From Eledone cirrhosa (Eukaryota), in NCBI GenBank assembly GCA_964016885.1, contig OZ024762.1, positions 4,774,001 to 4,838,000 on the forward strand: 64,000 nucleotides of DNA, written 5' to 3'. Of the stretch, positions 20,014 through 64,000 are shown piece after piece (position 1 is the first letter of the stretch; each line of letters opens with the position of its first letter). Under the pieces are notes generated by a model that made no database searches, was not told the DNA's origin, and saw only the letters and a list, made by a program, of their open reading frames with translations. The position numbers were made by a program, and so were the translations under genes.

Positions 20014-23000
20014 ATGGATAAGAAAGCCATAACCGCGGAAATGGTTGAGAAATATTTGAACAATCACCCCACTTTCATCGATGAGTGGTTGAATAGGAAC
20101 AAAATGAGAAGTGACCTTGATGAAAAATACACGAAGAAGACGCTGAGATTTTCAAGCTATGTGGAAAAGATTATGGTGAAACAGAAGAGGGAGAAACGTC
20201 AACTGATTAGCTCTCTGGTGTCGGAAAATGAACTTTTCAGTGAGCTAGTCAAAGACATTACACATGAAATCAATACCAACGCCCTCAGTCACAAAATCTT
20301 GCAGAACATCATTAAATTAACTCACTGCGAACGAGGAAGTTTGTTCTTCATTGAAAAACTAGGAAAAGAGAAATTTTTAGTTTCGAATCTGTTCGACGTC
20401 ACCCCCACCTCAGTAATGTTCGAAACTTTGCGTGAGAAAGAAAATGTTATCCGAATACCTTATGGTAAAGGAATCGTTGGCTACGTGGCCGAAACTAAAT
20501 TAAAAGTTAATATAAGGGATGCTTACCAAGACCCCCGTTTCAACAAAGAGATTGATGAAATGACTGGCTGTCGAACAAAGTGTTTAATTTGTATGCCGAT
20601 TCTAAATTACTGCGATGATGTTATAGGGGTCGCGCAAATCATTAATAAACTTGACGGAGACTATTTCACAGAAAATGACGAAAAGACCTTCGTTGATTAT
20701 TTGTATTTTTGTGGGATTAGTTTGAATAATGCCCAGTTGTTCGAAAAATCAGTCGAAGAATACAAACGAAACCAACAGTTACTGAATTTGGTAGGGGACA
20801 TATGTGCTGAGTACTCTAACTTTATGAGTCTCATTGAAGTTATATTGAGTCGAGCAACAGAAATTCTTGATTGCAGCTATGTTTGTCTTGGTCTTTTAAC
20901 TCCTTCCAAGATGGACGACACCACAGAAAAGGAATTAAATCTTTACGAAATGAAGAATGATGCTCTACAAACAAATACCACACACCCAATCTATAGGAAA
21001 GTGGCCATGGATTTTTTACTAAATGACAAACGTCTGCATATGTATGATATCAAGAATGACAGTTTATTTGAAGGTGGTGATTCTGCGATTCTTAAAAGTA
21101 ACTGTATTGGTGCAATTGCTTTGTTAGACACATCTGAAGAAAAAAATGGTTGCATATTTTTCACAAAGGAGTCAACAGATTTTTTTAACGAGTCTAATTT
21201 TACAACTATGGAGACATTTGGGTTATTCTGTGGCCTGGGAATTCATAACTGTCAAATCTGCTGGTCGACAATTAGGTGTTTAGCACAGCAGCAAATATCA
21301 CACGAAATTTTGTCGTTTCATACAACGGCTGATGAACGAGAAGTGGAGAGGTTTCTGTCGATGGAAAAACGATCTGCCTCTGACTATGGTATATATACAT
21401 TTGCCTTCAATGACCTTTATTATTCCGATGATACAACAGTTATTATCGCGGCACTCATTTTTATTGAAATGAATGCTTTACAGATTTTGGATATTGAGCT
21501 TCCTTTGCTTTACAAGTGGATACTTACAGTGAAGAAGAACTATCGCCCGGTCATCTATCACAACTGGCGACACGGCGTCAACGTGACTCAAAGCTTTTTC
21601 TGTATGCTGACCACTGGAGGTATGAACAAATACTTTTCTAATTTTGAAATGATTGTTGTCCTTATCGCATGTCTTTGCCATGACCTCGACCATAGAGGCA
21701 CTAACAATGACTACGAAGTGAAAACTGCGTCTAAATTAGCCACAATATACAGTTCTTCCACTCTTGAACATCACCATTTTGACCACTGCATAATGATATT
21801 AAACAATGAAAAAACAAACATATTCCAAAACACAGTAGTGCACAATTACAAAATAGCAGTCCATCTTATAGAAAAAGCTATTCTTTCAACAGATCTCACG
21901 CGCTATTTCCAGAATAGGACAGCATTCCAAGAACTCCTTGATAGAAAAGAAACTTTCGAGGAACAGGAAAAGCGCGATCTATTGTTAGCAATGATGATAA
22001 CGGGCGCTGATTTAGCGGCCGTTACAAAACCATGGAATACTCAAAAGAGAACAGCTTTACTAGTGACAGCGGAGTTTTTTGAGTTGGGAGATTTACAGAA
22101 GAATGTGTTAAAGTCGGAAGTTATAGCAATGTTCGACCGTGAAAAGAGGACCGATGTACCAAAATTACAAGTTGGTTTCATTCAGTTTGTATGCATACCA
22201 GTGTTTGAATCTTTACAGACGGTAAACAAAAACTTAATGCCGCTCTATGTGGGTTGTTTGAATAATCTGAAACACTGGGAAGATATAGTTGGCGGTAAAG
22301 AAGAATTTGATATCGATGTCGAGCTTAACAAGACATTAGCTGGGTTTTGGGATTCCGATGAGCCAGAAAGTGCTCGCCAAAGGACTGAGGAACAAAACGT
22401 ATCTCCCTCGCAAGAAGATAAGGATATATCGAAACGAATATCAGGGGGATATATAAAAGGGTATGAACGATTTATTGATTCAGGAAACTCGCCCAAATCT
22501 TTCGGAAGTTTAGATCTTGAACAACCTGGCTATTCTAATTCGGCCATTGCGAACGCGTCGACGTCAAAAATGCTCTCGGCGGCGGCGACGTTGGATGATA
22601 CCAAATATATGATATTCACATCAGATGAAGCAGGGGAGAGAGAATTGGATGAAATCGATGTTGATATTGAAGTAGAAGAGATACGTAGACTGAGAGGAAA
22701 TAAGGTGAACATAAAACAGATAACAGGTGGGCAGGAGATTATGAGAGAATTAACGTATATACAACTCAGTGATCCAATTCCTAGGCGTAAAGAGTCACTG
22801 AGGTCTTATTTAGACGAAATAGAAGAAGAGAGAAAGCATGCCCTGGAGAAGAAGAAAACCAACACGGAGTCGGTTAGTGAAAAAGAAGTGCCCCCAAAAA
22901 TCATTAGACCCTCATACACGGTGATCCCTTCTTATCAAAGATCAAACAAGGATACTTTTTCGACGAACTGTCCATCGAATGATTTATACCAAGAAACTAG

Positions 23001-23142
23001 ATCGGTAGATTCCGCGATTCGTCAAGTGGATCATTCGAAGTGTATAAAAATGTTCAGAGAAAGTAAAAGATGTATGCTAAAGGCTGACATTGATCCTGCC
23101 ACCGATAAGATAGAGAAAAGTGTTATGTGTCTTATTATATAA
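20014..23142 (+). CDS. GAF-domain cyclic-nucleotide phosphodiesterase (PDE5/6/11-like), single-exon, 1042 aa, C-terminal CaaX (CLII); copy 1
   Basis: GAF-A motifs SNLFDV, KGIVGYVAE, DAYQDPRF and QIINK..FTENDE. Catalytic motifs YHNWRH, HDLDHRGTNN, LEHHH, ADLAAVTKPW and LQVGFI. Confidence 0.95.
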   Translation: MDKKAITAEMVEKYLNNHPTFIDEWLNRNKMRSDLDEKYTKKTLRFSSYVEKIMVKQKREKRQLISSLVSENELFSELVKDITHEINTNALSHKILQNIIKLTHCERGSLFFIEKLGKEKFLVSNLFDVTPTSVMFETLREKENVIRIPYGKGIVGYVAETKLKVNIRDAYQDPRFNKEIDEMTGCRTKCLICMPILNYCDDVIGVAQIINKLDGDYFTENDEKTFVDYLYFCGISLNNAQLFEKSVEEYKRNQQLLNLVGDICAEYSNFMSLIEVILSRATEILDCSYVCLGLLTPSKMDDTTEKELNLYEMKNDALQTNTTHPIYRKVAMDFLLNDKRLHMYDIKNDSLFEGGDSAILKSNCIGAIALLDTSEEKNGCIFFTKESTDFFNESNFTTMETFGLFCGLGIHNCQICWSTIRCLAQQQISHEILSFHTTADEREVERFLSMEKRSASDYGIYTFAFNDLYYSDDTTVIIAALIFIEMNALQILDIELPLLYKWILTVKKNYRPVIYHNWRHGVNVTQSFFCMLTTGGMNKYFSNFEMIVVLIACLCHDLDHRGTNNDYEVKTASKLATIYSSSTLEHHHFDHCIMILNNEKTNIFQNTVVHNYKIAVHLIEKAILSTDLTRYFQNRTAFQELLDRKETFEEQEKRDLLLAMMITGADLAAVTKPWNTQKRTALLVTAEFFELGDLQKNVLKSEVIAMFDREKRTDVPKLQVGFIQFVCIPVFESLQTVNKNLMPLYVGCLNNLKHWEDIVGGKEEFDIDVELNKTLAGFWDSDEPESARQRTEEQNVSPSQEDKDISKRISGGYIKGYERFIDSGNSPKSFGSLDLEQPGYSNSAIANASTSKMLSAAATLDDTKYMIFTSDEAGERELDEIDVDIEVEEIRRLRGNKVNIKQITGGQEIMRELTYIQLSDPIPRRKESLRSYLDEIEEERKHALEKKKTNTESVSEKEVPPKIIRPSYTVIPSYQRSNKDTFSTNCPSNDLYQETRSVDSAIRQVDHSKCIKMFRESKRCMLKADIDPATDKIEKSVMCLII

Positions 23143-23818: not shown

Positions 23819-23857
<39 letters not shown>

Positions 23858-24786: not shown

Positions 24787-26529
24787 TCTCCAGGTCTGAC
24801 CCGGTGGAGCCCACCCCTCTCCAGGTCTGACATGGTGGAGTCCATCCCTCTCCAGGTCTGACCTGGTGGAGCCCATCCCTCTCCTGGTCTGACCTGGTGG
24901 AGCCCATCCCTCTCCTGGTCTGACCTGGTGGAGCCCATCCCTCTCCAGGTCTGACCCGGTGGAGCCCATCCCTCTCCTGGTCTGACCTGGTGGAGCCCAT
25001 CCCTCTCCAGGTCTGACCTGGTGGAGCCCACCCCTCTCCTGGTCTGACCTGGTGGAGCCCATCCCTCTCCTGGTCTGACCTGGTGGAGCCCATCCCTCTC
25101 CAGGTCTGACCTGGTGGAGCCCACCCCTCTCCTGGTCTGACCCGGTGGAGCCCATCCCTCTCCTGGTCTGACCTGGTGGAGCCCATCCCTCTCCAGGTCT
25201 GACCCGGTGGAGCCCATCCCTCTCCTGGTCTGACCTGGTGGAGCCCATCCCTCTCCAGGTCTGACCTGGTGGAGCCCACCCCTCTCCAGGTCTGACATGG
25301 TGGAGCCCATCCCTCTCCTGGTCTGACCTGGTGGAGCCCATCCCTCTCCTGGTCTGACCCGGTGGAGCCCATCCCTCTCCTGGTCTGACCTGGTGGAGCC
25401 CATCCCTCTCCAGGTCTGACATGGTGGAGCCCATCCCTCTCCTGGTCTGACCTGGTGGAGCCCACCCCTCTCCAGGTCTGACCCGGTGGAGCCCATCCCT
25501 CTCCTGGTCTGACCTGGTGGAGCCCATCCCTCTCCAGGTCTGACCCGGTGGAGCCCATCCCTCTCCTGGTCTGACCTGGTGGAGCCCACCCCTCTCCAGG
25601 TCTGACCCGGTGGAGCCCATCCCTCTCCTGGTCTGACCTGGTGGAGCCCACCCCTCTCCAGGTCTGACCTGGTGGAGCCCATCCCTCTCCAGGTCTGACC
25701 CGGTGGAGCCCATCCCTCTCCTGGTCTGACCTGGTGGAGCCCATCCCTCTCCAGGTCTGACCTGGTGGAGCCCACCCCTCTCCAGGTCTGACCTGGTGGA
25801 GCCCATCCCTCTCCAGGTCTGACCTGGTGGAGCCTATCCCTCTCCAGGTCTGACCCGGTGGAGCCCATCCCTCTCCTGGTCTGACCTGGTGGAGCCCATC
25901 CCTCTCCAGGTCTGACCTGGTGGAGCCCACCCCTCTCCAGGTCTGACCTGGTGGAGCCCATCCCTCTCCAGGTCTGACCCGGTGGAGCCCATCCCTCTCC
26001 TGGTCTGACCTGGTGGAGCCCATCCCTCTCCAGGTCTGACCCGGTGGAGCCCATCCCTCTCCTGGTCTGACCTGGTGGAGCCCATCCCTCTCCAGGTCTG
26101 ACCCGGTGGAGCCCATCCCTTTCCTGGTCTGACCTGGTGGAGCCCATCCCTCTCCAGGTCTGACCTGGTGGAGCCCACCCCTCTCCTGGTCTGACCTGGT
26201 GGAGCCCATCCCTCTCCAGGTCTGACCCGGTGGAGCCCATCCCTCTCCTGGTCTGACCTGGTGGAGCCCATCCCTCTCCTGGTCTGACCTGGTGGAGCCC
26301 ATCCCTCTCCAGGTCTGACCTGGTGGAGCCCACCCCTCTCCAGGTCTGACATGGTGGAGCCCACCCCTCTCCAGGTCTGACATGGTGGAGCCCATCCCTC
26401 TCCAGGTCTGACATGGTGGAGCCCATCCCTCTCCAGGTCTGACCTGGTGGAGCCCATCCCTCTCCAGGTCTGACATGGTGGAGCCCATCCCTCTCCAGGT
26501 CTGACCTGGTGGAGCCCATCCCTCTCCAG
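24787..26529. repeat. 31-bp minisatellite (CTCTCCAGGTCTGACCTGGTGGAGCCCATCC), about 56 copies
   Basis: Period 31. The same 31-aa repeat appears in all three minus frames, so the long ORFs are artefacts. Confidence 0.95.
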
Positions 26530-27105: not shown

Positions 27106-28069
27106 ATACACACACATCCACACACATCCACACATAAACACATACATATAAACACACATACACACACATACATACACACAAACACATACATACACACACA
27201 AACACATACATACACATGCACACAGAAACGTAATACACCCACATACACATACACATATACCACATACGCACATACATATACACACATACACATATACACA
27301 CACATACACACACAGAGATACACACACATGCACACACAAACACATACACGCTCATACATACATACACATACACACACAAACACATACATACACATACACA
27401 CTCATGCATATACACACACACACTCACACCACCCATATTCCTGCTACTAAATATTATGTATAACTGTTAGAGGTGAAGTCTCCCAACAGGATATATGACT
27501 CAACCTTAACTACATCTAAAGCTGCAGTGACTTCATCAAGGAAGGACCTGTATTCGGACTCCTTGTTTGGTGCATAAACTTGCACCACCCACAGAGACCT
27601 ATCTTTCAGCCTGAGCTTCAAAAGGAAAATCCTCCCTCCTAACAGGATACAGTCTATAACATATTCTGAAAGCTGGGAGCTTCAGTATCCCCACTCCCGC
27701 CTGTGCAATCATTTCAGGCGCCACACCTAAACAGTGGAGTTTCCATCCTACATCCAAATCTACAGTATCAGAGCCACAGAACATTGTTGAGGAGACCCCG
27801 ACTATATCTAGCCTGCTCCACTAGTTCCTGCTCCTTATTTGTAAGGGATGTAATGTTCCAGGTTCCAATTGTCAAGGTTTGCTCTCTTCCGGAACCTCTT
27901 TGGGGTCTCAGGATACGCAGGCTTATCGCCAGTTTTTTGCGGCATGAAATGAAGACTGCAATATATTTTTCGAACAGGCCCCTCTCTTGTTCATTATTTA
28001 CATGAAGTACCAGTAATGTACTGGGTAATTGCTGGCCTTGTGCCAATAGTAGAAACAATTATTTACATG

Positions 28070-35527: not shown

Positions 35528-38500
35528 TTATGAAATCGAACAGATATTTTTTGTCACAACCTCTTCAGGCGTTTTTCGGGAGAGGATAGAAAATTTTGAT
35601 TGGTACATTGGAACCTGCTTCATAAGTTTCCTTTTTCTATTTACATCAAGTTCTCTCATTGCCTTGGCAGAAATCCTTGCTTTTTCTTCGGCACTCATCT
35701 CCTCATATATGGGTTTGGGAAGCTCAGGTGTGCAATTTTCTAGTAAATCGCTGTTCGAAGAATAAGACCGGATCAGTTGATTGCTTAAATCAAACTTCGT
35801 TTCATCTACCTCAGAAACGGACTTAACCGAGGGTGATCTCTTTCTAAATAGTTGCTGCTCCAGTAATGAGTGGTTAAACGCCTCGCTTTCTTTGTACTCT
35901 GTATCTGATTGCAGTTCGTCTTCACTTTTACTTGTCGGCAATGCTTGTTGAAAATATATCTTTCTCTCTTTTAAGAATGAACCTGATAATTTCACATTAC
36001 TTTCCGATGCTTTACTAGATAGAAAACCATTGGGTTCTAAGGCCATTATCTCCAAATTCCCATTTAGTGTGTAAGCACTTTCATTAGTAGGGATTAGTGC
36101 ATTTCTTCCTCCCATACGTAGTTCAGTATAATCGATTTTAGTTTGGGTGGTTTTCGAGATTTTTTCTTTAAAAATATCTATACTGAAAGTCAGAAGTTTT
36201 CTAGACGAATATATATCATATTCGTTATCGGTTTGACAAGAATTTTCACGCGTAGTTTTTTTCTCACCTTTGACCTTGGGGAAAATTAATGTAGTTTGCG
36301 TAGCAATAGATACAGATAATATCATACGATCATGGTAATTAAGGATGAACGGTGAACTCTTCGAAGATATCCGCCTTTTTAACTCTGGGTTTTTACTGAA
36401 AATAATCTCAAATTCAAAATCAATGTCAAAATGTTCCAAACCTGCCACTATATTCGACCAATGAGTTCTGTTATCCAGCAACCCCTCATAAAGAAAGGTA
36501 AATTTCTCTTCTACTTCAGATAGCAGATGAAAAATCGGAACACATGCAAAATCAATAAACCCAACATGCATTTCAGGAAATTTGTACCTATTTTCCAAAT
36601 CCATGAGAGCTGTAACTTCATGGTCTAACTTTTTCTCTTCGTCTCCCTGTTCGTAGAATTCAGCTGCAATATTAATTGCGTTTGACTTTTGAATTTCCCA
36701 TGGTCTGGTAAGAGCTGAAAGATCACATGCTGTCATCGAAATATTCATTAGTAAATCAGAATCTTCTGGAGTGTCAAATGTCTTATCTCCGCGTTCGATT
36801 TTCTCTCTAAAAGCTACAATTTCTTTAAAATGCCGTTGCAAATCTGTAGCTAGAATGGCTTTTTCGATAAATTTAAGGCCGTGTTGGTAATCTTTGGTCG
36901 AGACATTCCGAAATATATCTGTACCAGCAGTGTTTAACAACCTGATAGCCGTATCTATATGATGATGTTCCAACACCGACGTATGATATAATACAGTAAA
37001 AGGAGATGATGTCTTCGCTAGAAATGCATTATTTTTCCCTCTGTGATCAAGATCATGTAATAAGCAAGCAACCAATAAGCAGATATGTTCAAATTCTGTG
37101 AAACATAATTTCATTAAGGGAGCTCGCAAGAGACACAACATCATTTGAAATACCATTAAACCATGGTGCCAATTGTGGTAAGTATTTGGACGATAGTTCT
37201 TCTTAGCAGTTAAAATAAACCTGTATAAAATATCAATCGGTATATTTAATATAGTTAATGCTTTCTTCTCAATAAACCCCTGCGCACACAACAAAACTGT
37301 TTCCTCGTCTGAATACTTTGTCGCATTGAAATCCCGTGAATATAACTGGTACTCTTCCGAAGTAAGTCGATTTAATTTTAAGAAATGCTTTAAAAGCTTT
37401 AGATCACAAGTGGTATGATGAGTTAGTATTTCTTTCATTACGTCTCCTTGAATTGTCAACCTAACAGAACGTTCGTATAAGTGGGAATTATAAATGCTAA
37501 CTCCACAGATAAATGCAAATATCTCCATTATATTGATATCGCTTTTGCTGACAACTTCGTTGTCATTTCTAACAAATACTAAACAGCCAATAACCTCACA
37601 AAGTGCATTTGTTATTTTCATACAAAGTAACCAGTTACTCGCATCTCCTTTTACAGTAATTAACATTTCACTTGAGCCTCTGTCTAATATTACAGTTTCG
37701 ATTATGTTCGAACTTTTCATAGCCGTTTCAATTGTTCTGACATATTTTTTATTTAACGGGACTTCAGTCACTTCTACTTCATTTCTTAATAACTGAAAAG
37801 CTGTTGTGTATTTCGTCGGAGAGATCATATCATTCCCCTTATCTGCCAAATAAAGACAAATCTTGCTACAATCTAACATAACCATGGCATTTTGAAGGAT
37901 TTCTGATATAAGTTTTCGAAAATTATTTTGTTCTTTTAGAACATATCTGGTCAGTTTTAGTAATAACTGGTGACGTTTAGATTCCTCCACTGATGTTTTT
38001 AACAACTGTTCATTGTTAATACTGATTCCACAAAAAGATAGAAAACTCTTAAATATGCTTTCATCATGTAAATCGAACTTTCCACCATTTTTCTTGTTCA
38101 ATACTTGAGCTACACCTATTACGATGCCTTGTCTATCAGTAATCGGTGTAGTGAGAATACTCACTGTATGAAATCCTGTTGCGTTATCGATATCAGGTAG
38201 AAAACGTGCATCGTGGTAGGCATCATTAATGTTTAACGTGCAATTATTTTCAGCTACATATCCCACAAATCCTTTCCCCATTGGAATACGAATGGCATTT
38301 TCTTCTGTGTGAAGTGTTTCTTCCAAAACCGAAGTGGCTGTAACGTCAAAGAGTATGGAGACAAGGTTTAATTGTTTAGCCGTTCCACGTAACAGAAAAA
38401 GGCTTCCTCTCTCACAGTTAAGTATTTTACAAGTATTTTGAAGAACTTTGTGACATAATTTATTTACATTCAATTCGAAAATATCTTTTATAAATTCTCT

Positions 38501-40498
38501 ATATGTTTCATTTTCTGTTGCTGCTGTAACTAATACGCTGTCGTTTAACTTAGTTTTAAGTGAAGCAGTTGATTGTGAAGATAGCTGAGATTCTCTACTG
38601 CTGGTCACATTTTCTGTTGCTGCTGCAACTAATACGCTGTCGTATAACTTAGTTTTAAGTGAAGCAGTTGATTGTGAAGATAGCTGAGATTCTCTACTGC
38701 TGGTCACATTTTCTGTTGCTGCTGCAACTAATACGCTGTCGTATAACTTAGTTTTAAGTGAAGCAGTTGATTGTGAAGATAGCTGAGATTCTCTACTGCT
38801 GGTCACATTTTCTGTTGCTGCTGCAACTAATACGCTGTCGTATAACTTAGTTTTAAGTGAAGCAGTTGATTGTGAAGATAGCTGAGATTCTCTACTGCTG
38901 GTCACATTTTCTGTTGCTGCTGCAACTAATACGCTGTCGTATAACTTAGTTTTAAGTGAAGCAGTTGATTGTGAAGAGAGCCGAGATTCTCTACTGCTAG
39001 TCATATTTTCTGTTGCTGCTGCAACTAATACGCTGTCGTTTAACTTAGTTTTAAGTGAAGCAGTTGATTGTGAAGAGAGCCGAGATTCTCTACTACTGGT
39101 CACATTTTCTGTTGCTGCTGCAACTAATACGCTGTCGTATAACTTAGTTTTAAGTGAAGCAGTTGATTGTGAAGAGAGCCGAGATTCTCTACTGCTAGTC
39201 ATATTTTCTGTTGCTGCTGCAACTAATACGCTGTCGTTTAACTTAGTTTTAAGTGAAGCAGTTGATTGTGAAGAGAGACGAGATTCTCTACTACTGGTCA
39301 CATTTTCTGTTGCTGCTGCAACTAATACGCTGTCGTATAACTTAGTTTTAAGTGAAGCAGTTGATTGTGAAGAGAGCCGAGATTCTCTACTGCTAGTCAT
39401 ATTTTCTGTTGCTGCTGCAACTAATACGCTGTCGTTTAACTTAGTTTTAAGTGAAGCAGTTGATTGTGAAGAGAGCCGAGATTCTCTACTACTGGTCACA
39501 TTTTCTGTTGCTGCTGCAACTAATACGCTGTCGTATAACTTAGTTTTAAGTGAAGCAGTTGATTGTGAAGAGAGCCGAGATTCTCTACTGCTAGTCATAT
39601 TTTCTGTTGCTGCTGCAACTAATACGCTGTCGTTTAACTTAGTTTTAAGTGAAGCAGTTGATTGTGAAGAGAGCCGAGATTCTCTACTACTGGTCACATT
39701 TTCTGTTGCTGCTGCAACTAATACGCTGTCGTATAACTTAGTTTTAAGTGAAGCAGTTGATTGTGAAGAGAGCTGAGATTCTCTACTGTTAGTCATATTT
39801 TCTGTTGCTGCTGCAACTAATACGCTGTCGTATAACTTAATTTTAAGTGAAGCAGTTGATTGTGAAGAGAGCTGAGATTCTCTACTGTTAGTCATATTTT
39901 CTGTTGCTGCTGCAACTAATACGCTGTCGCATAACTTAATTTTAAGTGAAGCAGTTGATTGTGAAGAGAGCTGAGATTCTCTACTGTTAGTCATATTTTC
40001 TGTTGCTGCTGCAACTAATACGCTGTCGTATAACTTAATTTTAAGTGAAGCAGTTGATTGTGAAGAGAGCTGAGATTCTCTACTGCTGGTCACATTTTCT
40101 GTTGCTGCTGTAACTAATACGCTGTCGTATAACTTAGTTTTAAGTGAAGCAGTTGATTGTGAAGAGAGCCGAGATTCTCTACTGCTGGTCACATTTTCGG
40201 TTGCTGCTGTAACTAATACGCTGTCGTTTAATTTAGTTTTAAGTGAAGCAGTTGATTGTGAAGAGAGCCGAGATTCTCTACTGCTGGTCACATTTTCTGT
40301 TGCTGCTGCAACTAATACGCTGTCGTTTAATTTAGTTTTAAGTGAATCAGTTGATTGTGAAGATAGCTGAGATTCTCTACTGCTAGTCACATCGTCTGTT
40401 AACGACTGTTGCTGACGCCATTCCCTAACGAAATCTGGGTTGTTCTGCAAGAAATGTTCAACTTCTTCTTTACTAAGTTCTTCCTTTTTTTGCTCCAT
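35528..40498 (-). CDS. GAF-domain PDE5/6/11-like phosphodiesterase, single-exon, about 1656 aa, with 19 x 33-aa N-terminal repeats and CaaX (CSIS); copy 2
   Basis: First ATG at 40498 (the track start 40522 is GTG). Motifs SILFDV, QVLNKK..FDLHDE, YHNWHH, HDLDHRGKNN, CDLSALTRPW and EMHVGFI. Confidence 0.93.
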   Translation of the reverse strand: MEQKKEELSKEEVEHFLQNNPDFVREWRQQQSLTDDVTSSRESQLSSQSTDSLKTKLNDSVLVAAATENVTSSRESRLSSQSTASLKTKLNDSVLVTAATENVTSSRESRLSSQSTASLKTKLYDSVLVTAATENVTSSRESQLSSQSTASLKIKLYDSVLVAAATENMTNSRESQLSSQSTASLKIKLCDSVLVAAATENMTNSRESQLSSQSTASLKIKLYDSVLVAAATENMTNSRESQLSSQSTASLKTKLYDSVLVAAATENVTSSRESRLSSQSTASLKTKLNDSVLVAAATENMTSSRESRLSSQSTASLKTKLYDSVLVAAATENVTSSRESRLSSQSTASLKTKLNDSVLVAAATENMTSSRESRLSSQSTASLKTKLYDSVLVAAATENVTSSRESRLSSQSTASLKTKLNDSVLVAAATENMTSSRESRLSSQSTASLKTKLYDSVLVAAATENVTSSRESRLSSQSTASLKTKLNDSVLVAAATENMTSSRESRLSSQSTASLKTKLYDSVLVAAATENVTSSRESQLSSQSTASLKTKLYDSVLVAAATENVTSSRESQLSSQSTASLKTKLYDSVLVAAATENVTSSRESQLSSQSTASLKTKLYDSVLVAAATENVTSSRESQLSSQSTASLKTKLNDSVLVTAATENETYREFIKDIFELNVNKLCHKVLQNTCKILNCERGSLFLLRGTAKQLNLVSILFDVTATSVLEETLHTEENAIRIPMGKGFVGYVAENNCTLNINDAYHDARFLPDIDNATGFHTVSILTTPITDRQGIVIGVAQVLNKKNGGKFDLHDESIFKSFLSFCGISINNEQLLKTSVEESKRHQLLLKLTRYVLKEQNNFRKLISEILQNAMVMLDCSKICLYLADKGNDMISPTKYTTAFQLLRNEVEVTEVPLNKKYVRTIETAMKSSNIIETVILDRGSSEMLITVKGDASNWLLCMKITNALCEVIGCLVFVRNDNEVVSKSDINIMEIFAFICGVSIYNSHLYERSVRLTIQGDVMKEILTHHTTCDLKLLKHFLKLNRLTSEEYQLYSRDFNATKYSDEETVLLCAQGFIEKKALTILNIPIDILYRFILTAKKNYRPNTYHNWHHGLMVFQMMLCLLRAPLMKLCFTEFEHICLLVACLLHDLDHRGKNNAFLAKTSSPFTVLYHTSVLEHHHIDTAIRLLNTAGTDIFRNVSTKDYQHGLKFIEKAILATDLQRHFKEIVAFREKIERGDKTFDTPEDSDLLMNISMTACDLSALTRPWEIQKSNAINIAAEFYEQGDEEKKLDHEVTALMDLENRYKFPEMHVGFIDFACVPIFHLLSEVEEKFTFLYEGLLDNRTHWSNIVAGLEHFDIDFEFEIIFSKNPELKRRISSKSSPFILNYHDRMILSVSIATQTTLIFPKVKGEKKTTRENSCQTDNEYDIYSSRKLLTFSIDIFKEKISKTTQTKIDYTELRMGGRNALIPTNESAYTLNGNLEIMALEPNGFLSSKASESNVKLSGSFLKERKIYFQQALPTSKSEDELQSDTEYKESEAFNHSLLEQQLFRKRSPSVKSVSEVDETKFDLSNQLIRSYSSNSDLLENCTPELPKPIYEEMSAEEKARISAKAMRELDVNRKRKLMKQVPMYQSKFSILSRKTPEEVVTKNICSIS
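38509..40390 (-). repeat. 99-bp coding tandem repeat, 19 copies, within PDE copy 2
   Basis: taatacgctg at 38531, 38630 and onward (period 99). Unit SSRESQLSSQSTASLKTKLNDSVLVAAATENVT. Confidence 0.95.
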
Positions 40499-40647: not shown

Positions 40648-40677
40648 TTGTGACGTCAGACAAACAGTGACATCGCA
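40648..40677 (-). promoter_or_regulatory. Paired CRE module upstream of PDE copy 2
   Basis: Minus strand TGCGATGTCA-CTGTTTGTC-TGACGTCACAA. Perfect CRE at 40651-40658, about 150 bp upstream of the ATG. Confidence 0.6.
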
Positions 40678-48287: not shown

Positions 48288-48314
48288 ATGATGTCACAAC
48301 TTGCATAACGTCAT
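48288..48314 (+). promoter_or_regulatory. Paired CRE-like module upstream of PDE copy 3
   Basis: TGATGTCA (48289) -N9- TAACGTCA (48306), with the same 17-bp start-to-start spacing as copies 2 and 4. Confidence 0.45.
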
Positions 48315-48564: not shown

Positions 48565-51500
48565 ATGCTGCGCTCGAGGTCAAGTGGAATCGACGATATG
48601 GAACAAACAAAAAAGAAAGAACTTAAAAAAGAAGAAGTTGAACGCTTCTTACAGAGAAACCCAGGTTTCGTTAAGAGACGGCGTCAGCTACAGTCGTTAG
48701 AAGAAACGGCTAGAAGAGAATCTCAGCTATCTTCACAATCAACTGCTTCACTTAAAACTAAGTTAAACGACAGCGTATTAGTTACATCAGCAACAGAAAA
48801 TGAAACATATAGAGAATTTATAAAAGATATTTTCGAATTGAATGTAAATAAATTATGTCACAAAGTTCTTCAAAATACATGTAAAATACTTAACTGTGAG
48901 AGAGGAAGCCTTTTTCTGTTACGTGGAACGGCTAAACAATTAAACCTTGTCTCCATACTCTTTGACGTTACAGCCACTTCGGTTTTGGAAGAAACACTTC
49001 ACACAGAAGAAAATGCCATTCGTATTCCAATGGGGAAAGGATTTGTGGGATATGTAGCTAAAAATAATTGCATGTTAAACATTAATGATGCCTACCACGA
49101 TGCACGTTTTCTACCTGATATCGATAAAAAAACAGGATTTCATACCGTGAGTATTCTCACTACACCGATTACTGATAAACAAGGCATCGTAATAGGTGTA
49201 GCTCAAGTATTGAACAAGAAAAATGGTGGAAAGTTCGATTTACATGATGAAAGCATATTTAAGAGTTTTCTATCTTTTTGTGGAATCAGTATTAACAATG
49301 AACAGTTGTTAAAAATGTCAGAGGAGGAATCTAAACGTCACCAGTTATTACTAACACTGACCAAATGTATTCTAAAAGAACAAAATAATTTTCGAAAACT
49401 TATATCAGAAATCCTTCGAAATGCCATGGATATTTTAGATTGTAGCAAGATTTGTCTTTATTTAGCAGATAAGGGGAATGATACGATCTCTCCGACGAAA
49501 TACACAACAGCTTTTCAGTTATTAAGAAATGAAATAGAAGTGGCTGAAGTCCCGTTAAATAAAAAATATATGAAAGTAATTGAAACGATTATGAAAAGTT
49601 CGAACATTATCGATAATGTAATAATACAAAGAGGCTCAAGCGAAATGTTAATTACTGTAAAAGGTGTTGCGAGTAACTGTTTACTTTGTATGAAAATAAC
49701 AAATGCACTTTGTGAGGTTATTGGCTGTTTAGTATTTGTTAGAAATGACAACGAAGTTGTCAGCAAAAGCGATATCAATATAATGGAGATATTTGCATTT
49801 ATCTGTGGACTTAGTATTTATAATTCCCACTTATACGAACGTTCTGTTAGGTTGACAATTCAAGGAGACATAATGAAAGAAATACTAACTCATCATACCA
49901 CTTGTGATCTAAAGCTATTAAATCATTTCTTAAAATTAAATCGACGCACTTCGGAAGAGTACCAGCTATATTCACGGGATTTCAATGCGACATTGTATTC
50001 AGAGGAGGAAACAGTTTTGTTGTGTGCGCAGGGGTTTATTGAGAAGAAAGCATTAAATATATTAAATATACCGATTGATATTTTATACAGGTTTATTTTA
50101 ACTGCTAAGAAGAACTATCGTCCAAATACTTACCACAATTGGCACCATGGTTTAATGGTATTTCAAATGATGTTGTGTCTCTTGCGAACTCCCTTAATGA
50201 AATTATGTTTCACAGAATTTGAACATATCTGCTTATTGGTTGCTTGCTTATTACATGATCTTGATCACAGAGGGAAAAATAATGCATTTCTAGCGAAGAC
50301 ATCATCTCCTTTTACTGTATTATATCATACGTCGGTGTTGGAATATCATCATATAGATAGAACTATCAGGTTGTTAAACACTGCTGGTACAGATATATTT
50401 CGGAATGTCTCGACCAAAGATTACCAACACGGCCTTAAATTTCTCGAAAAAGCCATTCTAGCTACAGATTTGCAACGACATTTTAAAGAAATTTCAGCTT
50501 TTAGAGAGAAATTCGAACGCGTTGATAAAACGTTTGACACTCCAGAAAATTCTAATTTACTAATGAATATTTTGATGACAGCATGTGATCTTTCAGCTGT
50601 TACCAGACCATGGGAAATTCAAAAGTCAAATGCAGTTAGGCTTGCGGCTGAATTCTACGAACAGGGAGACGAAGAGAAAATGTTAGATCATAAAGTTACA
50701 GCTCTCATGGACCGTGAAAAGAAACACAGTTTTCCTGAACTGCAAGTCGGGTTTATTGATTTTGTATGTATTCCGCTTTATCGTCTGCTATCTGAAGTAG
50801 AAGCGAAATTTACCTTTCTTTATGAGGGGTTGATGGATAACAGAACTCATTGGGCGAATATAGCCTCAGGTTTGGAACCTTTTGACATTGATTTGGAATT
50901 TGCGATTGTTTCCAAAATGGGGGGACACAAGAAAGGTATATATTCTAAGGTAAAACCTCAATCACACTTTAAAAACCGGAATGCATCAACCTCTAGTTTT
51001 TCTGCTCAAACTTCATTCATTCTGGATGAGGTTGGGGATGAGCAACCATCAGGTTCAGATCTGTGTGATAAAACATGTCAAACTGTGCATCATACGGCTC
51101 CAGTAGCAAAATACAAACGTATTTCTCTTTTAGACGCCCTAGGGAATTTTTATGGTGAAAAACTTCTGAAAGCCAAGGTGATGCCATTTAACGTAATCTC
51201 TATGAACACTAATAAAGATTCACAGGCGGGCTTTGCAGAAGATGATGCTGGGCACGTCGCACCGAAACGGGGTGGGGTTCATAATTTACAGAAAACGAAT
51301 GAATTTAAAAATTCAAATGCTAAACTGTCCTCTATTACTGAAAAATCACCGACAGCCGGGGAATCAAATAATAAAACACGGTTATCTTCTTCGACGGGTC
51401 AAACTGGAGATAATATACTCACTTCATCAGAGAAAGCAAAAGAACATTTCGAAGTTCTAAAGGAATCAATAAAACATATGGAAAACAAAACGACTCGCGG

Positions 51501-51690
51501 GGAACTAAATGTATGTTTATTGAGTGAGGAAGAAAAAGACGTTATAGCTATGAACGCCAAGGAGGGTCTTAATCCATACAGGAAAAGGAAATGTTTAAAG
51601 AAAGTTAGTCAGCGCAATATAATTGGCGATAGAACGAAAATGCCATTATACAATGATGGTTTAGAAAAGAGCGTGTGCACAATTTCATGA
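48565..51690 (+). CDS. GAF-domain PDE5/6/11-like phosphodiesterase, single-exon, 1041 aa, CaaX (CTIS); copy 3
   Basis: Core near-identical to copy 2. Motifs YHNWHH, HDLDHRGKNN, CDLSAVTRPW and ELQVGFI. An alternative start at Met 48598 aligns with the copy 2 start. Confidence 0.95.
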   Translation: MLRSRSSGIDDMEQTKKKELKKEEVERFLQRNPGFVKRRRQLQSLEETARRESQLSSQSTASLKTKLNDSVLVTSATENETYREFIKDIFELNVNKLCHKVLQNTCKILNCERGSLFLLRGTAKQLNLVSILFDVTATSVLEETLHTEENAIRIPMGKGFVGYVAKNNCMLNINDAYHDARFLPDIDKKTGFHTVSILTTPITDKQGIVIGVAQVLNKKNGGKFDLHDESIFKSFLSFCGISINNEQLLKMSEEESKRHQLLLTLTKCILKEQNNFRKLISEILRNAMDILDCSKICLYLADKGNDTISPTKYTTAFQLLRNEIEVAEVPLNKKYMKVIETIMKSSNIIDNVIIQRGSSEMLITVKGVASNCLLCMKITNALCEVIGCLVFVRNDNEVVSKSDINIMEIFAFICGLSIYNSHLYERSVRLTIQGDIMKEILTHHTTCDLKLLNHFLKLNRRTSEEYQLYSRDFNATLYSEEETVLLCAQGFIEKKALNILNIPIDILYRFILTAKKNYRPNTYHNWHHGLMVFQMMLCLLRTPLMKLCFTEFEHICLLVACLLHDLDHRGKNNAFLAKTSSPFTVLYHTSVLEYHHIDRTIRLLNTAGTDIFRNVSTKDYQHGLKFLEKAILATDLQRHFKEISAFREKFERVDKTFDTPENSNLLMNILMTACDLSAVTRPWEIQKSNAVRLAAEFYEQGDEEKMLDHKVTALMDREKKHSFPELQVGFIDFVCIPLYRLLSEVEAKFTFLYEGLMDNRTHWANIASGLEPFDIDLEFAIVSKMGGHKKGIYSKVKPQSHFKNRNASTSSFSAQTSFILDEVGDEQPSGSDLCDKTCQTVHHTAPVAKYKRISLLDALGNFYGEKLLKAKVMPFNVISMNTNKDSQAGFAEDDAGHVAPKRGGVHNLQKTNEFKNSNAKLSSITEKSPTAGESNNKTRLSSSTGQTGDNILTSSEKAKEHFEVLKESIKHMENKTTRGELNVCLLSEEEKDVIAMNAKEGLNPYRKRKCLKKVSQRNIIGDRTKMPLYNDGLEKSVCTIS

Positions 51691-54094: not shown

Positions 54095-56345
54095 CATCTC
54101 CAGAACCACTAGCCACTTCCCCATGCGCTCCACTCAGCCCCGACGTGCCTGACCCTGTAAACTTTGTCGGTGGGGTGTCTGCAATTTCATTGCGTTGGCC
54201 TTGGCCATGTAGTCTGCCATGTTGGGTGACGTGGAAAATGAGAACTTCACGGTGTGGCGCTTGAATATTTTGTGGTACCTGTGGGATGCCGGGAAACACT
54301 CGTCCAATGCCCTCAAGAAGAGACCTGGCACGTTAGTGCATACATGCTTCCAGTATGGTGCGTTGAACCATGCTATGTTTCTAGACCTATTCTTATTTCG
54401 TGGTCTGCTACTAGTAGTGTGTGCAGTGTCATGTTGTTTTCTCTGGTTACGCCCCACTCCTATTTCATTCCCTATTCTATCCCTATAGCTAGAACTACTA
54501 TTTAAGTCAGGAGAAAGGCATTCACTTACTATGTTGTTCTGTACACGCTTACTAGCCCTAGTTTTCATCCCCGTCCTGCTACCCGAGTGTCCTGCCGTAT
54601 CATTGTTGGTGTTCTTTATCCTGGTGTTATCTCTAGCGTGCTGTATGTCCTGTGATGCGTTAGCTACTTCACTATCTTTGGTTTCCTCGTCGTGGTCTGT
54701 GCTGTTGTTACGGTTCACTCTGGATGTGCTGGGGTCCCTAGGGTTTCCATGCGCCCACTTCTGTCTATGCGTCGTGGTGCCTTCCTATCCATATCGTTAT
54801 GTGTGTGCTCTCGGGTAGTTTGTCTGCCTATGTTAGTACTAATGGTATCCGGGTGTTTGCGTTCCTCGTTATGCGGCCTGCCCTTGTCCGAGGTGTACAC
54901 TATGGCTTCTGTGTAACCGGCTCTGCCCAATGCCTCGTTGTAGTAGTCGGCGTGCTGATTGAACAGATCCGCGTTGGCGGACAATGTGGATACGCCGTTG
55001 GATACCCCCTTGATTATTGCGTCTATAACCTACTTGGGGTGGTTTCAGTGTCTGTTTACGTACTTCAGGTTCTCGTTGGGCTTGTGATATGGTCGGTATA
55101 AGCCTGTATCCAGTTCTAAGGATACGTCTGGGAAGTTTACCGTCTTAGTGCTAGTTTCTATTAGCACGGATAAGCCGTGCTGCTTAAAAAAATATGAGAT
55201 GCGCTTCCGCATGCGCTCCAGCTGGATAGAGTTTAGTGAGCGGAAGGTAAATAGGGTGCCGTCTCTATATATTCCCCCGCCTATCCCTGGAATCTCTTCT
55301 GCTAACCTATGGAGTAGATAAATTCCCACCAGGTCCGTCACCTGTACGGAGTCGCTCGACCCGATAGTGATGACGAAACTGTCGGGTCTGTCTCTCCTTT
55401 CCCATAATCTACCGTCAAACCTAATTAGCGTCTTTCTAGCAGCTATAATGATGTCCATTTCTCCTCTAGTTAGGTTGGACCTGACCATAGCGCTCATGAG
55501 GGCCTTGTTCCCAATTCCTGGTGAAATGGGAACGTAGTAATTGGTTATGTTCAGCTGAACGAAGTCCACTTGCTGTTTGGTAGGCAGCGCTGGGAACCAG
55601 TCGATTACCTTTTTAGTGGAAGTCCATAGGCTAAGTCTATTTCTATTCATAAGCGTTGGCAGGATCTTATCTATTATATTCTTACTGGCCCTACCTAGGT
55701 CCGACTTGGAAGGTGCTATTAGACTAACCAGGAGGTTAGTCTTAAAGTCTAATTTATGATCTTTGATAGAAATCCGCAGTTTTCTAGGTACATACTGTTC
55801 GGTCCTGCCTGTTACTTAAAGTCCCGTCATTAATTTTTTGGTCGTGTTGTTGATTCTATCAAGGTTCTCCTGTCCTGTAGTCCTATAATTCTTCCTAATC
55901 TCTTTCTCAATGTATTTTCTATATGTTCTGTGGTTCATCCTGTAAATGCTACCCGTCTTATCCAAAGGTACAAGTAAGCCCGGGCAACTCTCCATGCTTT
56001 TAATCCTGGAGCTGAGCTCCTTCAGGTACTCGCTTCCACGTGCTGCATTCCTTCTGAATTTGATGTTCCTTACGATGCTGACTAAGCGGTTTTCAAACAC
56101 TTCCAATGCCCCGTTGTGCGGGGTATGTCGTCTGGACTTGAAAATCCGCTTAAGGCGGTCGTGGGTGACGTCCTGTGTCTGTTGCGTATTCCCGTTGTCG
56201 TAGTGGAAGGCGCGCCATCTCATGTGCCTGACAAAAGAGTTGGTATGGTGGATGAGTAGGCGAAAGTAGGTGTTGTCCGAAGGGATCGGGATGTCTTTGA
56301 ATGAGGAATAGTACTGGAATTTCTCCATGGCAATTCGCTGCAAGC
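54095..56345 (-). mobile_element. Decayed Penelope-like element
   Basis: SSFKDIPIPS, FVRHMRWRAFHY, DKTGSIY, QVTDLVGIYLL, GIYRDG, VNFPDVSLEL..YRPYHKPN..LKYV, IAWFNAPY and HRYHKIFKRHTVKFSFS. Confidence 0.85.
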
Positions 56346-56489
56346 ACTTAACTCTACCTCCAGTAGTAATTCCGATTTAAGAAACAACTTTGATTGACAG
56401 GTGGCGAATGAAAGGAACCAAATATAGGACGGCCATGAGTGGGCAAAAATACCGATGACGTGTACAATTCTTGACCACTCATAGAATGA

Positions 56490-57382
56490 CAACAGGATCT
56501 AAGCTGCCGAATGAGGGCCGCGGGCGTAACTGGACATTTGGAAACTCTGCTTCGTAGAATTGAGACGTATCTGAGGACCTTGCGATTTCAGAGTCAGGTT
56601 CGATCATTACATCGATCGTGCCTCGAGCTAGTCGCCAGAGAAACGATTGTAATATGTCTAATAAATTTTATTCGTCGCAACACTGATTCTCCGTTCCTTG
56701 ACGGAGCTGCAGTCCTGGATCAGGAAAAGACCGAGGTATAGCGCTTGGAAGCTGGAATGTCTCCAAGCCCTCACCGCCCGCTACCGCCTGGGCACTAGTA
56801 TCGGTGGAACATCCACTTCGGCGTTCTATAAAGGGCTAGTGGAGGGAAAGAGCGACGACGTTCTCGGGGAGACCATGGGCGTCGAAGGCGATGAGCTGTT
56901 CGCTCTCTTCAAGAGAACTTTCAGACCGGGGCCTGTGGACAACTTCCAGAAATCCCTGGCCTGGCAGTGCTACCGGGGACCGTTGCCGGTTCGGGATAAG
57001 CTCTACAGGCACGGAGGTGCTGTCAGCCGAGCCTGTCCGAGATGCGCGCAGGGCGACGAAACCGCCCTGCACGCACTCGTTCAGTGCCCGAGCATTGCTG
57101 ACTTGTGGAGCTATGCCGAACAGCTGCTGTCGCGTGTAGGACGGATCCGGTTATCGACTGAGTCCATTGTGCAGATAGCCCCGCCATCCTCCTTTAAAGA
57201 GGAGGAAGGGCAGGGAGTTTTCATCTGCCTGGTGGCCATGGCGAAAGAGATTATGTGGTGGACAAGATTGAAAGGGCGATTCCCTAATTAACTTTTTCAA
57301 GTTTCACTTGAAGAGGTAAATCAGGGTGGAGAGGCAAGTGCTGCCTTCTAGCAAGTTTGTTGAAAGGTGGGTGAATGTAGAC
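56490..57382 (+). mobile_element. L1/Tx1-like LINE 3' fragment (zf-RVT region)
   Basis: LAWQCYRGPLPVRDKL..CPRC..ETALHALVQCP. Confidence 0.75.
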
Positions 57383-59559: not shown

Positions 59560-60560
59560 TTACTGTGGTAACAATTGTTACGCAATAGATATATATTGTA
59601 ATGATCTTAATGGTCCCTGTTTTTTTTATTCTAGTGTCTAAGACGCCATATACATACTGCATGAAGTATTACAGAGTTAAAGACACCATGAAATATTACA
59701 GAGATAAAGAAACCAAAGAGAACAGGAGCCATGACACAACCCTGCTTCGTACTGTTTGTGACACCAAATGGTTCCGAGCATTCGCCATTTGACGTAAGTG
59801 CTGCTTTCATGTCGTCATGAAAATATATGATGACATTCAGCGTATTGTCAGATATGCCAAGCATTTTAAGGATTTTCCAGATATCTTTGTTTGACAAAGG
59901 CTTTGGTCAGAGCGACAAAAACAATGAATAGATTTTGGTTCTTTTCACGGACCTCCTCTGCAACCTGGTGAAGGGAGAAGATAATGTCAATTGTACCCCG
60001 ACCTGTGCGGAAACCACATTTATTTTCAGGGTAAATATCATCAACAAATCTGGTTGTGATTCTGTTGAGATTGATACCTGAAAGTACCTTGTGCAGCAAC
60101 AAAGAGAAAGATGCCGCGAAGATTGTTACGGATAGATTTTTTTACCTTTGTCTTTGAACAGATGGATTATAGATCTGAAGTGTTGAGAGACATGGTCGAT
60201 CTTTCAGATTACCAAAAATAGCCGAAGCTTACGAATTAGTTTTTTACCAATATATTTGAACATTTCAGGTAGAGTGCCATCTTCACCAGGAACTTTATTG
60301 GATGACCGTTGCTTGATAACGGCTTGTATTTGATTCAAACTTGGATTGAATGCTAATTCGGGTATCTCCAGCCTTTGTCGATTACATGATATTACATCTT
60401 CATCTATTTTTGATTCAGCATTAAAGGCCTTCTTGAAATATTCCTTCCAGCGAGAGAGTATCTCAGCTTTGTCTGTGTATAGGGTTGTCCTATCGGAGGT
60501 TTTTTTACACACTAGATTCGGCCAGTTCTCCATCGGAACATACACCGCATTCAAACCATT
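59560..60560 (-). mobile_element. Decayed RTE/BovB-like LINE RT fragment
   Basis: ILSRWKEYF, KVPGEDG, CGFRTGRGTIDIIF..IVFVALTKAF and PFGVTNSTKQGCVMAPVLF. Confidence 0.8.
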
Positions 60561-61760: not shown

Positions 61761-61790
61761 TGCAATGTCAAAGTTTGAATGACGTCACAA
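61761..61790 (+). promoter_or_regulatory. Paired CRE module upstream of PDE copy 4
   Basis: TGCAATGTCA-AAGTTTGAA-TGACGTCACAA. Perfect CRE at 61780-61787, about 310 bp upstream of the ATG. Confidence 0.6.
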
Positions 61791-62090: not shown

Positions 62091-64000
62091 ATGGTTGATG
62101 AGCTTACACGAGAAGATGTGGAAACATTTTTCGAAGAAAATCCTGAATTCCTTAAAAAATATGCAAGTAAGAATAAAATACCACCTTCAGCATTATCATT
62201 TATCGAACACCTTCAATTAATTCTTAGTCGAAAAATAGCCTACCAAACGCAAAGGAGCAGTGTGATTTCCGAATTCGAGACTTACAGAGAAATACTCAAG
62301 GAATTCGCTTCCGAACTCAATGAGGATAGACTGTGCTACGTAATTCTTCAAAACACATGTATCTTACTCAATTGTGACAGCGCCAATATTTTCGTGGCTC
62401 GAGGTACTGATAATAACCGTTATCTTATTTCTAAATATATAGGTGTCACTTCTAATTCACAACGAACCGAAAGTCAGTATAAAGGACTCAATCCCATTCG
62501 CATACCATTCGGTAAAGGAATTGTAGGCTATGTAGCTGAAACTAAGCGTACCTTAAAAGTCACTGATGTTGCCAATTCTGAATATTATAAAATGGTTGAT
62601 GTAAAATCTTTCACACCTAATGCCAAAAGTATTCTTTCTATGCCAATTTTAAATAAAAGCGGGAAGGTGATGGGGGTAGCTCAGGTAATGAACTATGACG
62701 AAAATTCCGATTTTTCTTCAGAAGATGAAGCTTTATTTGCGAACTTACTGTCCTTTTGTGGAATCGGTATAGAGACTGTTTATTTGTTCCAAGTTTGTAC
62801 TGAGGAAGCCAGGCGCAACGCGTTATTACTTAAACTCACGGATTGCATTCTGAAAGTACAAAACAATCTACCGAAGCTTATATCTGAAATTCTACAACAA
62901 GCTATGGAGATGTTAGACTGCCGTAATATATGTGTCTATTTGTGTGACAAAACCAAAGGGACAGTCGAGCCTAAGAAGAACTCTAAAGTGTTTCAATTAT
63001 TAAGAGATGAAAACAATATGGAGGAGGTAACAATAGACAGCAGATTTATAAAGCATCTTGAAAGCAATTTGAAAAGTGAGAATATATTCGATATTTTCGA
63101 TTTAAAAACATATGCTGATGTCTCGGTTTCAGATGAGGATAATATCGAAAGTTGGTTACTTTGTATGGCAATAAAGGATGCCAAAGGAAATACAATTGGT
63201 TCGATAATGTTTATTAGAGATTCCAAGGACATATTCAGTGAAAATGATATCAATATGATAAAAACGTTTGCATCGGTTTGTGGTTTGAGTATTTTCAACT
63301 GTCGCCTGTACGAGACTTCAGTTAATTTGTTGGAACAGGCGAAAATAACTAACGATAGACTTGCTTATCACACAATATGCCATATGAAAACTGTTGAAAG
63401 ATACCGTTCAATGAAGTTGAAGTCTGCAGAAGAATATCAAATCTACAGTTTTGACTTCGATGATTCTTTATATAAAGAGGAAGACGGTGTTTTATTGTGT
63501 GTACTGATGTTTTTAAAACTTGACGTTGTAAATATATTGAATATATCTCAAAATTTTTTATACAGGTTTATTCTAACGGTTAAAAAGAACTATCGTCCGG
63601 TTGCCTACCATAATTGGCGCCATGCTTTAAACGTTACACAAACAATGTTCTGCATGTTAACTACAGGCCACGTAGGTAATTACTTTACACAATTTCAACA
63701 GATCTGCTTGTTAATGGCTTGTATGTTTCATGATCTTGATCACCGGGGACAGAACAATTCGTTTCAAGTGAAGATAGCCTCTTCTATTGCTACACTGTAC
63801 GGTACATCTGTATTGGAACACCACCATCTTGACCGGGGTATGATGATTCTGAATAATACTGGAACTAATATCTTTCAAAATCTTCCCGCAGAACAATACC
63901 AGCTTGGTCTCAAATTAATCGAGAAAGCAATCTTAGCTACCGACCTCATGAATTATTTTTCACGAATAAACATTTTTAAACATGAAGTAGAAAGCGGTCA
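62091..64000 (+). CDS. GAF-domain PDE5/6/11-like phosphodiesterase, single-exon so far, truncated by the window end; copy 4
   Basis: Manual translation from ATG 62091 is open to the end: MVDELTREDVETFFEENPEF..IRIPFGKGIVGYVAET..KKNYRPVAYHNWRH..HDLDHRGQNN..LEHHHLD..EKAILATDL. Confidence 0.9.
   Translation, partial: MVDELTREDVETFFEENPEFLKKYASKNKIPPSALSFIEHLQLILSRKIAYQTQRSSVISEFETYREILKEFASELNEDRLCYVILQNTCILLNCDSANIFVARGTDNNRYLISKYIGVTSNSQRTESQYKGLNPIRIPFGKGIVGYVAETKRTLKVTDVANSEYYKMVDVKSFTPNAKSILSMPILNKSGKVMGVAQVMNYDENSDFSSEDEALFANLLSFCGIGIETVYLFQVCTEEARRNALLLKLTDCILKVQNNLPKLISEILQQAMEMLDCRNICVYLCDKTKGTVEPKKNSKVFQLLRDENNMEEVTIDSRFIKHLESNLKSENIFDIFDLKTYADVSVSDEDNIESWLLCMAIKDAKGNTIGSIMFIRDSKDIFSENDINMIKTFASVCGLSIFNCRLYETSVNLLEQAKITNDRLAYHTICHMKTVERYRSMKLKSAEEYQIYSFDFDDSLYKEEDGVLLCVLMFLKLDVVNILNISQNFLYRFILTVKKNYRPVAYHNWRHALNVTQTMFCMLTTGHVGNYFTQFQQICLLMACMFHDLDHRGQNNSFQVKIASSIATLYGTSVLEHHHLDRGMMILNNTGTNIFQNLPAEQYQLGLKLIEKAILATDLMNYFSRINIFKHEVESG

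Follow-up and report, generated by a model that had tools for sequence, protein, structure and literature searches.

A tandem cluster of intronless PDE5/6-type phosphodiesterase genes in an octopod

The present work concerns a 64,000-nucleotide stretch of Eledone cirrhosa DNA (contig OZ024762.1, positions 4,774,001 to 4,838,000 of the forward strand; hereafter the window) and four genes in it, A to D, which encode GAF-domain phosphodiesterases (PDEs) in uninterrupted reading frames. The genes belong to an octopod tandem family derived from the protostome PDE5/6 lineage. With modest confidence, we consider that the founder of this family was a retrocopy which likely replaced its spliced parent, and its products are predicted to be prenylated cyclic guanosine monophosphate (cGMP) phosphodiesterases that serve mainly in testis and sperm.

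Four uninterrupted phosphodiesterase genes

The window is AT-rich DNA of animal type, with abundant microsatellites. Its four long non-repetitive PDE reading frames follow each other in the order +, -, +, + (Table 1); three are complete (1042, 1656 and 1041 amino acids), and D is truncated by the end of the window. Pfam GAF and PDEase_I matches exceed the curated cut-offs in all four, and among solved structures A matches human PDE5 best (E 7e-143). The anatomy thus bears out the preliminary description of this DNA, which had pointed to uninterrupted PDE frames in tandem and in mixed orientation. Gene C aligns in one frame with a chiton PDE5/6 protein, from the N-terminus to the end of the catalytic domain (36% over 826 columns), and its coding region is therefore free of introns, although the untranslated regions may still contain them. 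An alternative Met of gene C, at 48598, agrees with the start that is usual in the family. No other paralogue is as conserved as gene A, which matches its O. bimaculoides orthologue at 73% over the full length. For gene C, all 30 of 30 bins are covered by contigs from a single sample (three DNA-type runs), which may be the assembly's own source and is hence not independent of it. No RNA run was listed as a carrier, which has no bearing on expression.

An octopod clade within PDE5/6

The family forms a single clade (100/100) on a long stem branch (0.6) within protostome PDE5/6 (100/99) in a 29-row mixture-model tree. The four PDE11 rows constitute a clade of their own (100/100), which rules out an origin from PDE11 and narrows to PDE5/6 the initial assignment, which had been PDE5/6/11-like. 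The closest relatives of the window proteins are octopod proteins, the exact window proteins being absent from the protein collection searched. In O. vulgaris, 11 of the 12 accessions CAI9740184-195 belong to the family, all on a 48.2 Mb record, some being fragments or, in one case, a fused model. Nine members occur in O. sinensis: a 31.2 Mb record carries eight, out of the ten accessions XP_029650736-745, and the ninth is on a short contig. Six members were counted in O. bimaculoides and a single one in Argonauta hians. A further two, which branch deeply, come from ENA contigs, and every named member is an octopod.

In a 59-row FastTree, Octopus counterparts exist for A, for B/C and for D, alongside additional paralogue types which are not seen in the window. 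This indicates that the cluster predates the split of E. cirrhosa and Octopus; it probably extends beyond the window. In one O. vulgaris model (P0238, CAI9740184), an A-type gene is joined to the beginning of a gene of the 187 type, which suggests that the two types are adjacent in that species, like A and B in the window. Beyond annotated proteomes, none of 80 kept loci from the JGI metagenomes is convincing as a family member (three short loci are best on a family row, at only 56-58 bits), and the ESM Atlas yields generic PDE clusters only. The proposal of a lineage-specific, locally amplified and diversified family thus holds as to its restriction and its PDE5/6 origin; its suggested cephalopod scope contracts to octopods among the named members, none of which is from a squid or cuttlefish.

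The search for a spliced parent

The relatives of the family are spliced genes, as indicated by two arthropod-type genomic loci, L018 and L027, which match in 9 and 15 pieces, respectively. For molluscs, the sole hint on exon structure is the isoform label borne by many bivalve and gastropod matches. A chiton PDE5/6 query retrieves no named cephalopod among its 120 best matches (down to 912 bits), which represent bivalves, gastropods, an annelid, a brachiopod, deuterostomes, insects and cnidarians including corals, with more than 20 mollusc species. The same query matches family members at 356-618 bits versus 950-1076 for other molluscs tested, and none of the 29 unnamed matches placed in a tree falls among the mollusc genes. 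Since no intron-containing parent appears among named cephalopod proteins, retrogene replacement (or intron loss in place) seems likelier than an extra retrocopy beside its parent, unproven as it is, and the family may be the sole PDE5/6 of octopods. The preliminary description had envisaged a locally amplified retrocopy whose parent was still to be located; the amplification stands, and the parent is not to be found among these proteins.

A surviving spliced parent, as in that earlier model, would leave the family and its testis role as they are and would only be missing or fragmented in the protein databases. The search was indeed confined to proteins (annotated, of 476-1518 amino acids, with 8000 candidates scored) and included no positive control gene, and genes with large introns are commonly split in annotation. 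Yet the collection does include proteins from Argonauta and from three Octopus species, and none of them figures among the listed matches beside the more than 20 other molluscs, the insects and the cnidarians. We regard a surviving parent as unlikely.

Alternatively, the cluster might be the original PDE5/6 locus, its introns lost in place through recombination with its own cDNA and its genes then multiplied with no relocation. The position expected of an orthologue is open to the clade, in that a topology which joins the family to conchiferan mollusc PDE5/6 is not rejected (approximately unbiased (AU) test, p=0.184). No second copy was found among the proteins searched, and neither a poly-A tail nor a target-site duplication was identified; in the flanks, examined by eye, a short run rich in A follows the stop of gene A alone, and a poly-A remnant is not expected to persist in an old copy. 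The loss of all introns, together with a compact CRE promoter beside the reading frame, would nevertheless fit a retrocopy more simply, and no flanking gene was found in the window for synteny. Intron loss in place is thus judged quite unlikely.

A second PDE5/6 copy occurs in abalones and a limpet (P0012, P0016 and P0404; Haliotis, Patella). None of the three proteins is isoform-labelled, P0012 and P0404 group at 99, and the NK motif of GAF-B is intact in this copy, which may have arisen as an independent retrocopy or else be an old paralogue.

Upstream elements and expression

The window contains three perfect palindromes of the cyclic adenosine monophosphate response element (CRE), TGACGTCA, all of them upstream of PDE genes, at 562 nt from the ATG in A, 160 nt in B and 311 nt in D. 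The number expected in 64 kb is 0.66, and 3 of 100 shuffles attain three; by simple arithmetic, in a test made only after the motif was noticed, the chance that three such sites should all lie in the 2.4 kb of upstream sequence of the 64 kb is about 5e-5. A pair of a half-site and a full site at equal spacing is common to B, C and D, the sites upstream of C being degenerate. In the ENA protein P0139, the N-terminal extension includes RHDVTN, some 48 codons ahead of the homologous Met. This would fit an TGACGTCACA element at roughly the distance seen in gene B, and is a weak hint that the CRE may be ancestral.

Expression data from O. sinensis gonads, in the accessible part of the study (PMC11202624), include one 'cGMP-specific PDE-like' gene with 13.93 fragments per kilobase per million (FPKM) in testis and 0 in ovary. 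In the Gene Ontology enrichment of the same source (Table S7), 14 of 28 PDE-activity genes (GO:0004114) are differentially expressed in testis, versus 2.55 expected. The size of the octopod family suggests that these testis genes may be among its members; a cluster is not mentioned in the study. A function in sperm would also be consistent with the sea urchin, where, according to the portion available of a review, a sperm PDE5 orthologue affects flagellar motility (PMC11763789). Of the two candidate sites initially named, sperm or testis and sensory tissue, the former is thus better supported, and nothing was found for the latter.

A family with mainly neural or sensory roles, in which the CRE would act as an activity-dependent element in nitric oxide (NO)/cGMP signalling instead of in the germ line, appears very unlikely. 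CRE sites do serve neuronal genes too, and somatic roles may fall to at least one of the copies, probably A, as no other PDE5/6 was found. The excess of PDE genes in the O. sinensis testis, and the ovary value of zero for the listed gene, argue for the germ line.

Divergence among the paralogues

The paralogues differ in residues which are central to PDE function (numbered here as in human PDE5A, by alignment to its structure). The metal ligands H617, H653, D654 and D764 and the catalytic H613 are all intact in A, B and C; D has the same His and Asp residues as far as it can be read, the position of D764 falling beyond the end of the window. Of the two metal-binding motifs first given for the cluster, HDLDHRGxNN is present as described, and YHN.H reads in fact YHNWRH or YHNWHH, with two residues between N and H. 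The invariant substrate glutamine Q817 and the clamp Phe F820 are kept in A and C, and B has His at the glutamine (D ends earlier). Mutation of this glutamine in PDE5 mainly reduces the affinity for cGMP. The role of the residue with respect to the substrate is treated in PMC13095499. One Octopus type has Glu at the same position, along with Y612F, Q775E and F820Y. A deep-branching ENA protein, P0262, has HDLDYEG, has lost H657 and H685 and carries Met at the invariant glutamine; it is probably a pseudo-enzyme.

The regulatory half of the proteins varies as well. The cGMP pocket of GAF-A (F205/D206, NKFDE) appears conserved in A, B and C, judging from the alignment. In D, IG occupies the place of the F205/D206 pair, NY replaces NK and the DxRF..D..TG segment is missing; its O. 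bimaculoides counterpart is likewise devoid of the GAF-A pocket residues. In GAF-B, the NK of NKxFxxxD is absent from every family row that spans the region (31 of 33 rows), as opposed to its presence in five of five canonical rows. The C-termini of A, B and C end in a CaaX motif (CLII, CSIS and CTIS), as do those of chiton, scallop, urchin and fly orthologues, which marks this end as an inherited feature; D is cut before this region. Differences in regulation, in catalysis and at the C-terminus, all suggested at the outset, are thus found, and the membrane-targeting motif itself is no novelty of the cluster.

Repeats occur in some members. B bears an in-frame array of 33-amino-acid units, of which gene C carries one Ser/Thr-rich copy, and the DNA runs contain a looping contig of the corresponding 99-bp unit. 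The C-terminal tail of the Octopus 194 type (P0008, P0132) has a separate tandem repeat of 10 amino acids, ESDRKTQxNT-like, which O. vulgaris and O. sinensis carry in unequal copy number. Such expansion is thus recurrent in the octopod PDE family.

The B/C inverted repeat, probable gene conversion and selection

Genes B and C lie head to head, in divergent orientation, and have in common an inverted repeat of 2203 nt with 95% identity. Their tails are saturated (synonymous divergence, dS, 2.4; ratio of nonsynonymous to synonymous divergence, dN/dS, 0.36), and their flanks are unrelated except for short repeats. The B tail is closest to the Octopus 187 type (59-78 versus 41-50 bits) and the C tail to the 186 type (58-62 versus 33-40 bits); the tail tree leaves the B/C orthology unsettled, and a grouping of the two tails is borderline rejected (AU p=0.049). 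The Octopus 186/187 pair is a like mosaic, with 93-99% identity in GAF-A and 60% in the catalytic domain. Gene conversion is the simplest reading of these patterns, and the B/C core is likely a conversion tract. An assembly duplication is ruled out by the 5% difference between the cores, by the saturation of the tails and by the separate contigs that match the two genes.

D versus C yields dN/dS of 0.12-0.38, with dS near saturation, and the core of A versus C is not computable. In the B-C core, dN/dS is 0.88 (bootstrap 0.55-1.43) and is not distinguishable from 1; if 105 changes were placed at random in this core, the probability of meeting no stop would be 0.011. The purifying selection claimed for the cluster is therefore seen between old paralogues and not in the B-C core. 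It might be supposed that only A is constrained, and that B, C and D are relaxed duplicates which drift towards pseudogenes. The B-C ratio near 1, the loss of the invariant glutamine and the 19-fold repeat in B, and the long branches in the tree would accord with such a decay. However, the frames are open over 3-5 kb in the neighbourhood of fragmented retroelements, the D-C comparison and the B-C tails yield low ratios, counterparts of B/C and D persist in Octopus and the CaaX ends are retained, all of which makes decay highly improbable.

A possible course of events

The favoured account, replacement of the parent by a retrogene, may be pictured as follows. An intronless copy with a CRE promoter would have taken over, the spliced gene being lost or diverged past recognition. 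The compact unit of promoter and reading frame would then have been duplicated locally into at least five paralogue types, before the split from Octopus. A factor of the CREB/CREM type might turn on the whole set together in male germ cells. Of the products, A would remain a PDE5 of the conventional, cGMP-sensing sort, and D would have lost its coupling to cGMP binding at GAF-A. The exchange of the glutamine, for His in B and independently for Glu in one Octopus type, may weaken or shift the binding of substrate. Location may be set by the long divergent tails, and prenylation may anchor the products to membranes, such that the copies would shape cGMP signals by differing feedback, affinity and localisation. 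Gene conversion would go on homogenising the neighbouring cores.

Several points weigh against this account. The exon structure was seen for the genes of the window only, and the tandem arrangement in Octopus is deduced from accession order and equal record lengths. The sister group is unsettled, since a grouping with the second gastropod copy is not rejected either (AU p=0.108). The published testis genes are unmatched to family members by ID or by sequence, Table S7 giving no gene IDs. To these must be added the protein-only parent search, the late timing of the CRE test, the degenerate sites of C and the dN/dS of the B-C core.

A wider proposal, which we advance tentatively and regard as doubtful, is that octopods, and perhaps all coleoids, have exchanged the spliced PDE5/6 for a CRE-driven retrogene array. 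This would serve as a cGMP toolkit of the sperm, with approximately 4-11 co-expressed paralogues. Among these would be enzymes whose specificity glutamine is rewired to His or Glu, others that are insensitive to cGMP, and pseudo-enzymes, and conversion across inverted arms would reshuffle the array. If this were true, a CREM-like spermatid programme would have arisen, or would persist, in molluscs, and the somatic NO/cGMP signalling of octopuses would proceed without a conventional PDE5.

PDE5/6 is conserved, spliced and low in copy number in most animals examined, so that an intronless array without a detectable parent would be a rare case of replacement plus expansion. Most cephalopod novelties on record concern genes of the nervous system and the skin, and the octopod PDE family would add a reproductive gene family to them. 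The genes would provide named targets for cGMP control in cephalopod sperm, and their natural variants of the 'invariant' glutamine are directly assayable. The question also arises as to which enzyme clears cGMP in the somatic NO signalling of octopuses.

Relation to known systems

The octopod family shares the GAF-GAF-PDEase_I order and the catalytic residues with protostome PDE5/6 (Drosophila PDE6 and the mollusc 'cGMP-specific PDE-like' proteins), human PDE5A and sea-urchin sperm PDE5. A, B and C also share their GAF-A pocket residues, and the CaaX end is common to the invertebrate orthologues. The family differs from these systems in the absence of coding introns, a copy number of up to about 11 as opposed to one or two, its 0.6 stem branch, the loss of NKxFxxxD from GAF-B where the region is covered, divergent tails of 250-300 amino acids or longer, and, in some copies, substitution of the invariant glutamine. 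PDE5 and invertebrate PDE5/6 are closer matches than vertebrate photoreceptor PDE6.

Mammalian spermatid genes that are driven by CRE and CREM are often intronless, e.g. Tssk and Pgk2. The octopod genes resemble these in the intronless reading frame, the proximal CRE and the suspected testis expression, and differ from them in phylum and by an independent origin. The replacement of SYCP1 by a retrogene in amphioxus, as presented in the accessible part of PMC5803294, is alike in its single coding exon of about 3 kb, a parent that was not found and an association with the germ line. The putative octopod replacement would differ in what came after it, namely amplification in tandem, sub-specialisation and gene conversion.

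Proteins of the family are already auto-annotated in public proteomes, by name only. No paper describing the octopod PDE family or cluster was found in the literature, where supplements and subscription papers may mention the expansion; in a term search of cephalopod genome papers, 'phosphodiesterase' and 'PDE' are absent from the main text of PMC9068888, PMC13218726 and PMC8257504. New here are the placement of the CRE sites, the inverted core mosaic of B and C, the His of B together with its 19 x 33-amino-acid repeat, and the GAF-A loss in D.

Table 1. Features of the window, with positions counted from its first nucleotide (ORF, open reading frame; LTR, long terminal repeat)
Feature	Position	Strand	Remarks
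Gene A	20014..23142	+	1042 aa, single ORF; GAF-A/degenerate GAF-B/PDE; catalytic residues all intact; C-terminus CLII
Gene B	35528..40498	-	1656 aa; His1311 at the invariant substrate glutamine (MHVGF); C-terminus CSIS
Gene C	48565..51690	+	1041 aa; catalytic residues and glutamine intact; C-terminus CTIS
Gene D	62091..64000	+	636 aa readable; cut by the window end inside the catalytic domain
CRE-type cluster of A	19441..19478	+	TGACGTCT, TGACGTCA (19452), TGACATCA; 573-543 nt before ATG
Two-site element of B	40651..40674	-	GATGTCA then TGACGTCA, 160 nt before ATG
Degenerate two-site element of C	48289..48313	+	TGATGTCA and TAACGTCA, 276 and 259 nt before ATG
Two-site element of D	61764..61787	+	AATGTCA then TGACGTCA, 311 nt before ATG
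B arm of inverted repeat	36397..38599	-	GAF-A through catalytic domain
C arm of inverted repeat	48712..50914	+	Same B/C repeat
Tandem array in B	38509..40400	-	In-frame, 99-bp; 19 units of 33 aa, 12 distinct, 36% Ser+Thr
Fragmented non-LTR retroelement remnants	32833-34736 (+), 27953-28462 (+), 56665-57288 (+), 59634-60141 (-), 45400-45714 (+)		
Broken-ORF run	54137-56376	-	No Pfam hit
Young minisatellites	24787-26529, 29464-30992, 45786-47491, 18719-19223, 43885-44293		Units of 31, 23/46, 55, 76 and 25 bp
Short interspersed repeat, tandem copies	17597-18087, 41717-41933		Recurs around PDE genes

Repeats and transposons around the genes

The surrounding transposons had been described as decayed, with which the findings agree. 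A scan of 89 of the 90 listed non-PDE reading frames of at least 70 amino acids gives seven matches, to reverse transcriptase or zf-RVT, all of them short fragments; one zf-RVT match is above the cut-off, and no element is intact. Long low-complexity frames were rejected as genes, being read-throughs of microsatellites and minisatellites; several frames of the 31-bp array stay open and so imitate long genes. The run of broken frames on the reverse strand (Table 1) resembles a Penelope-type element.

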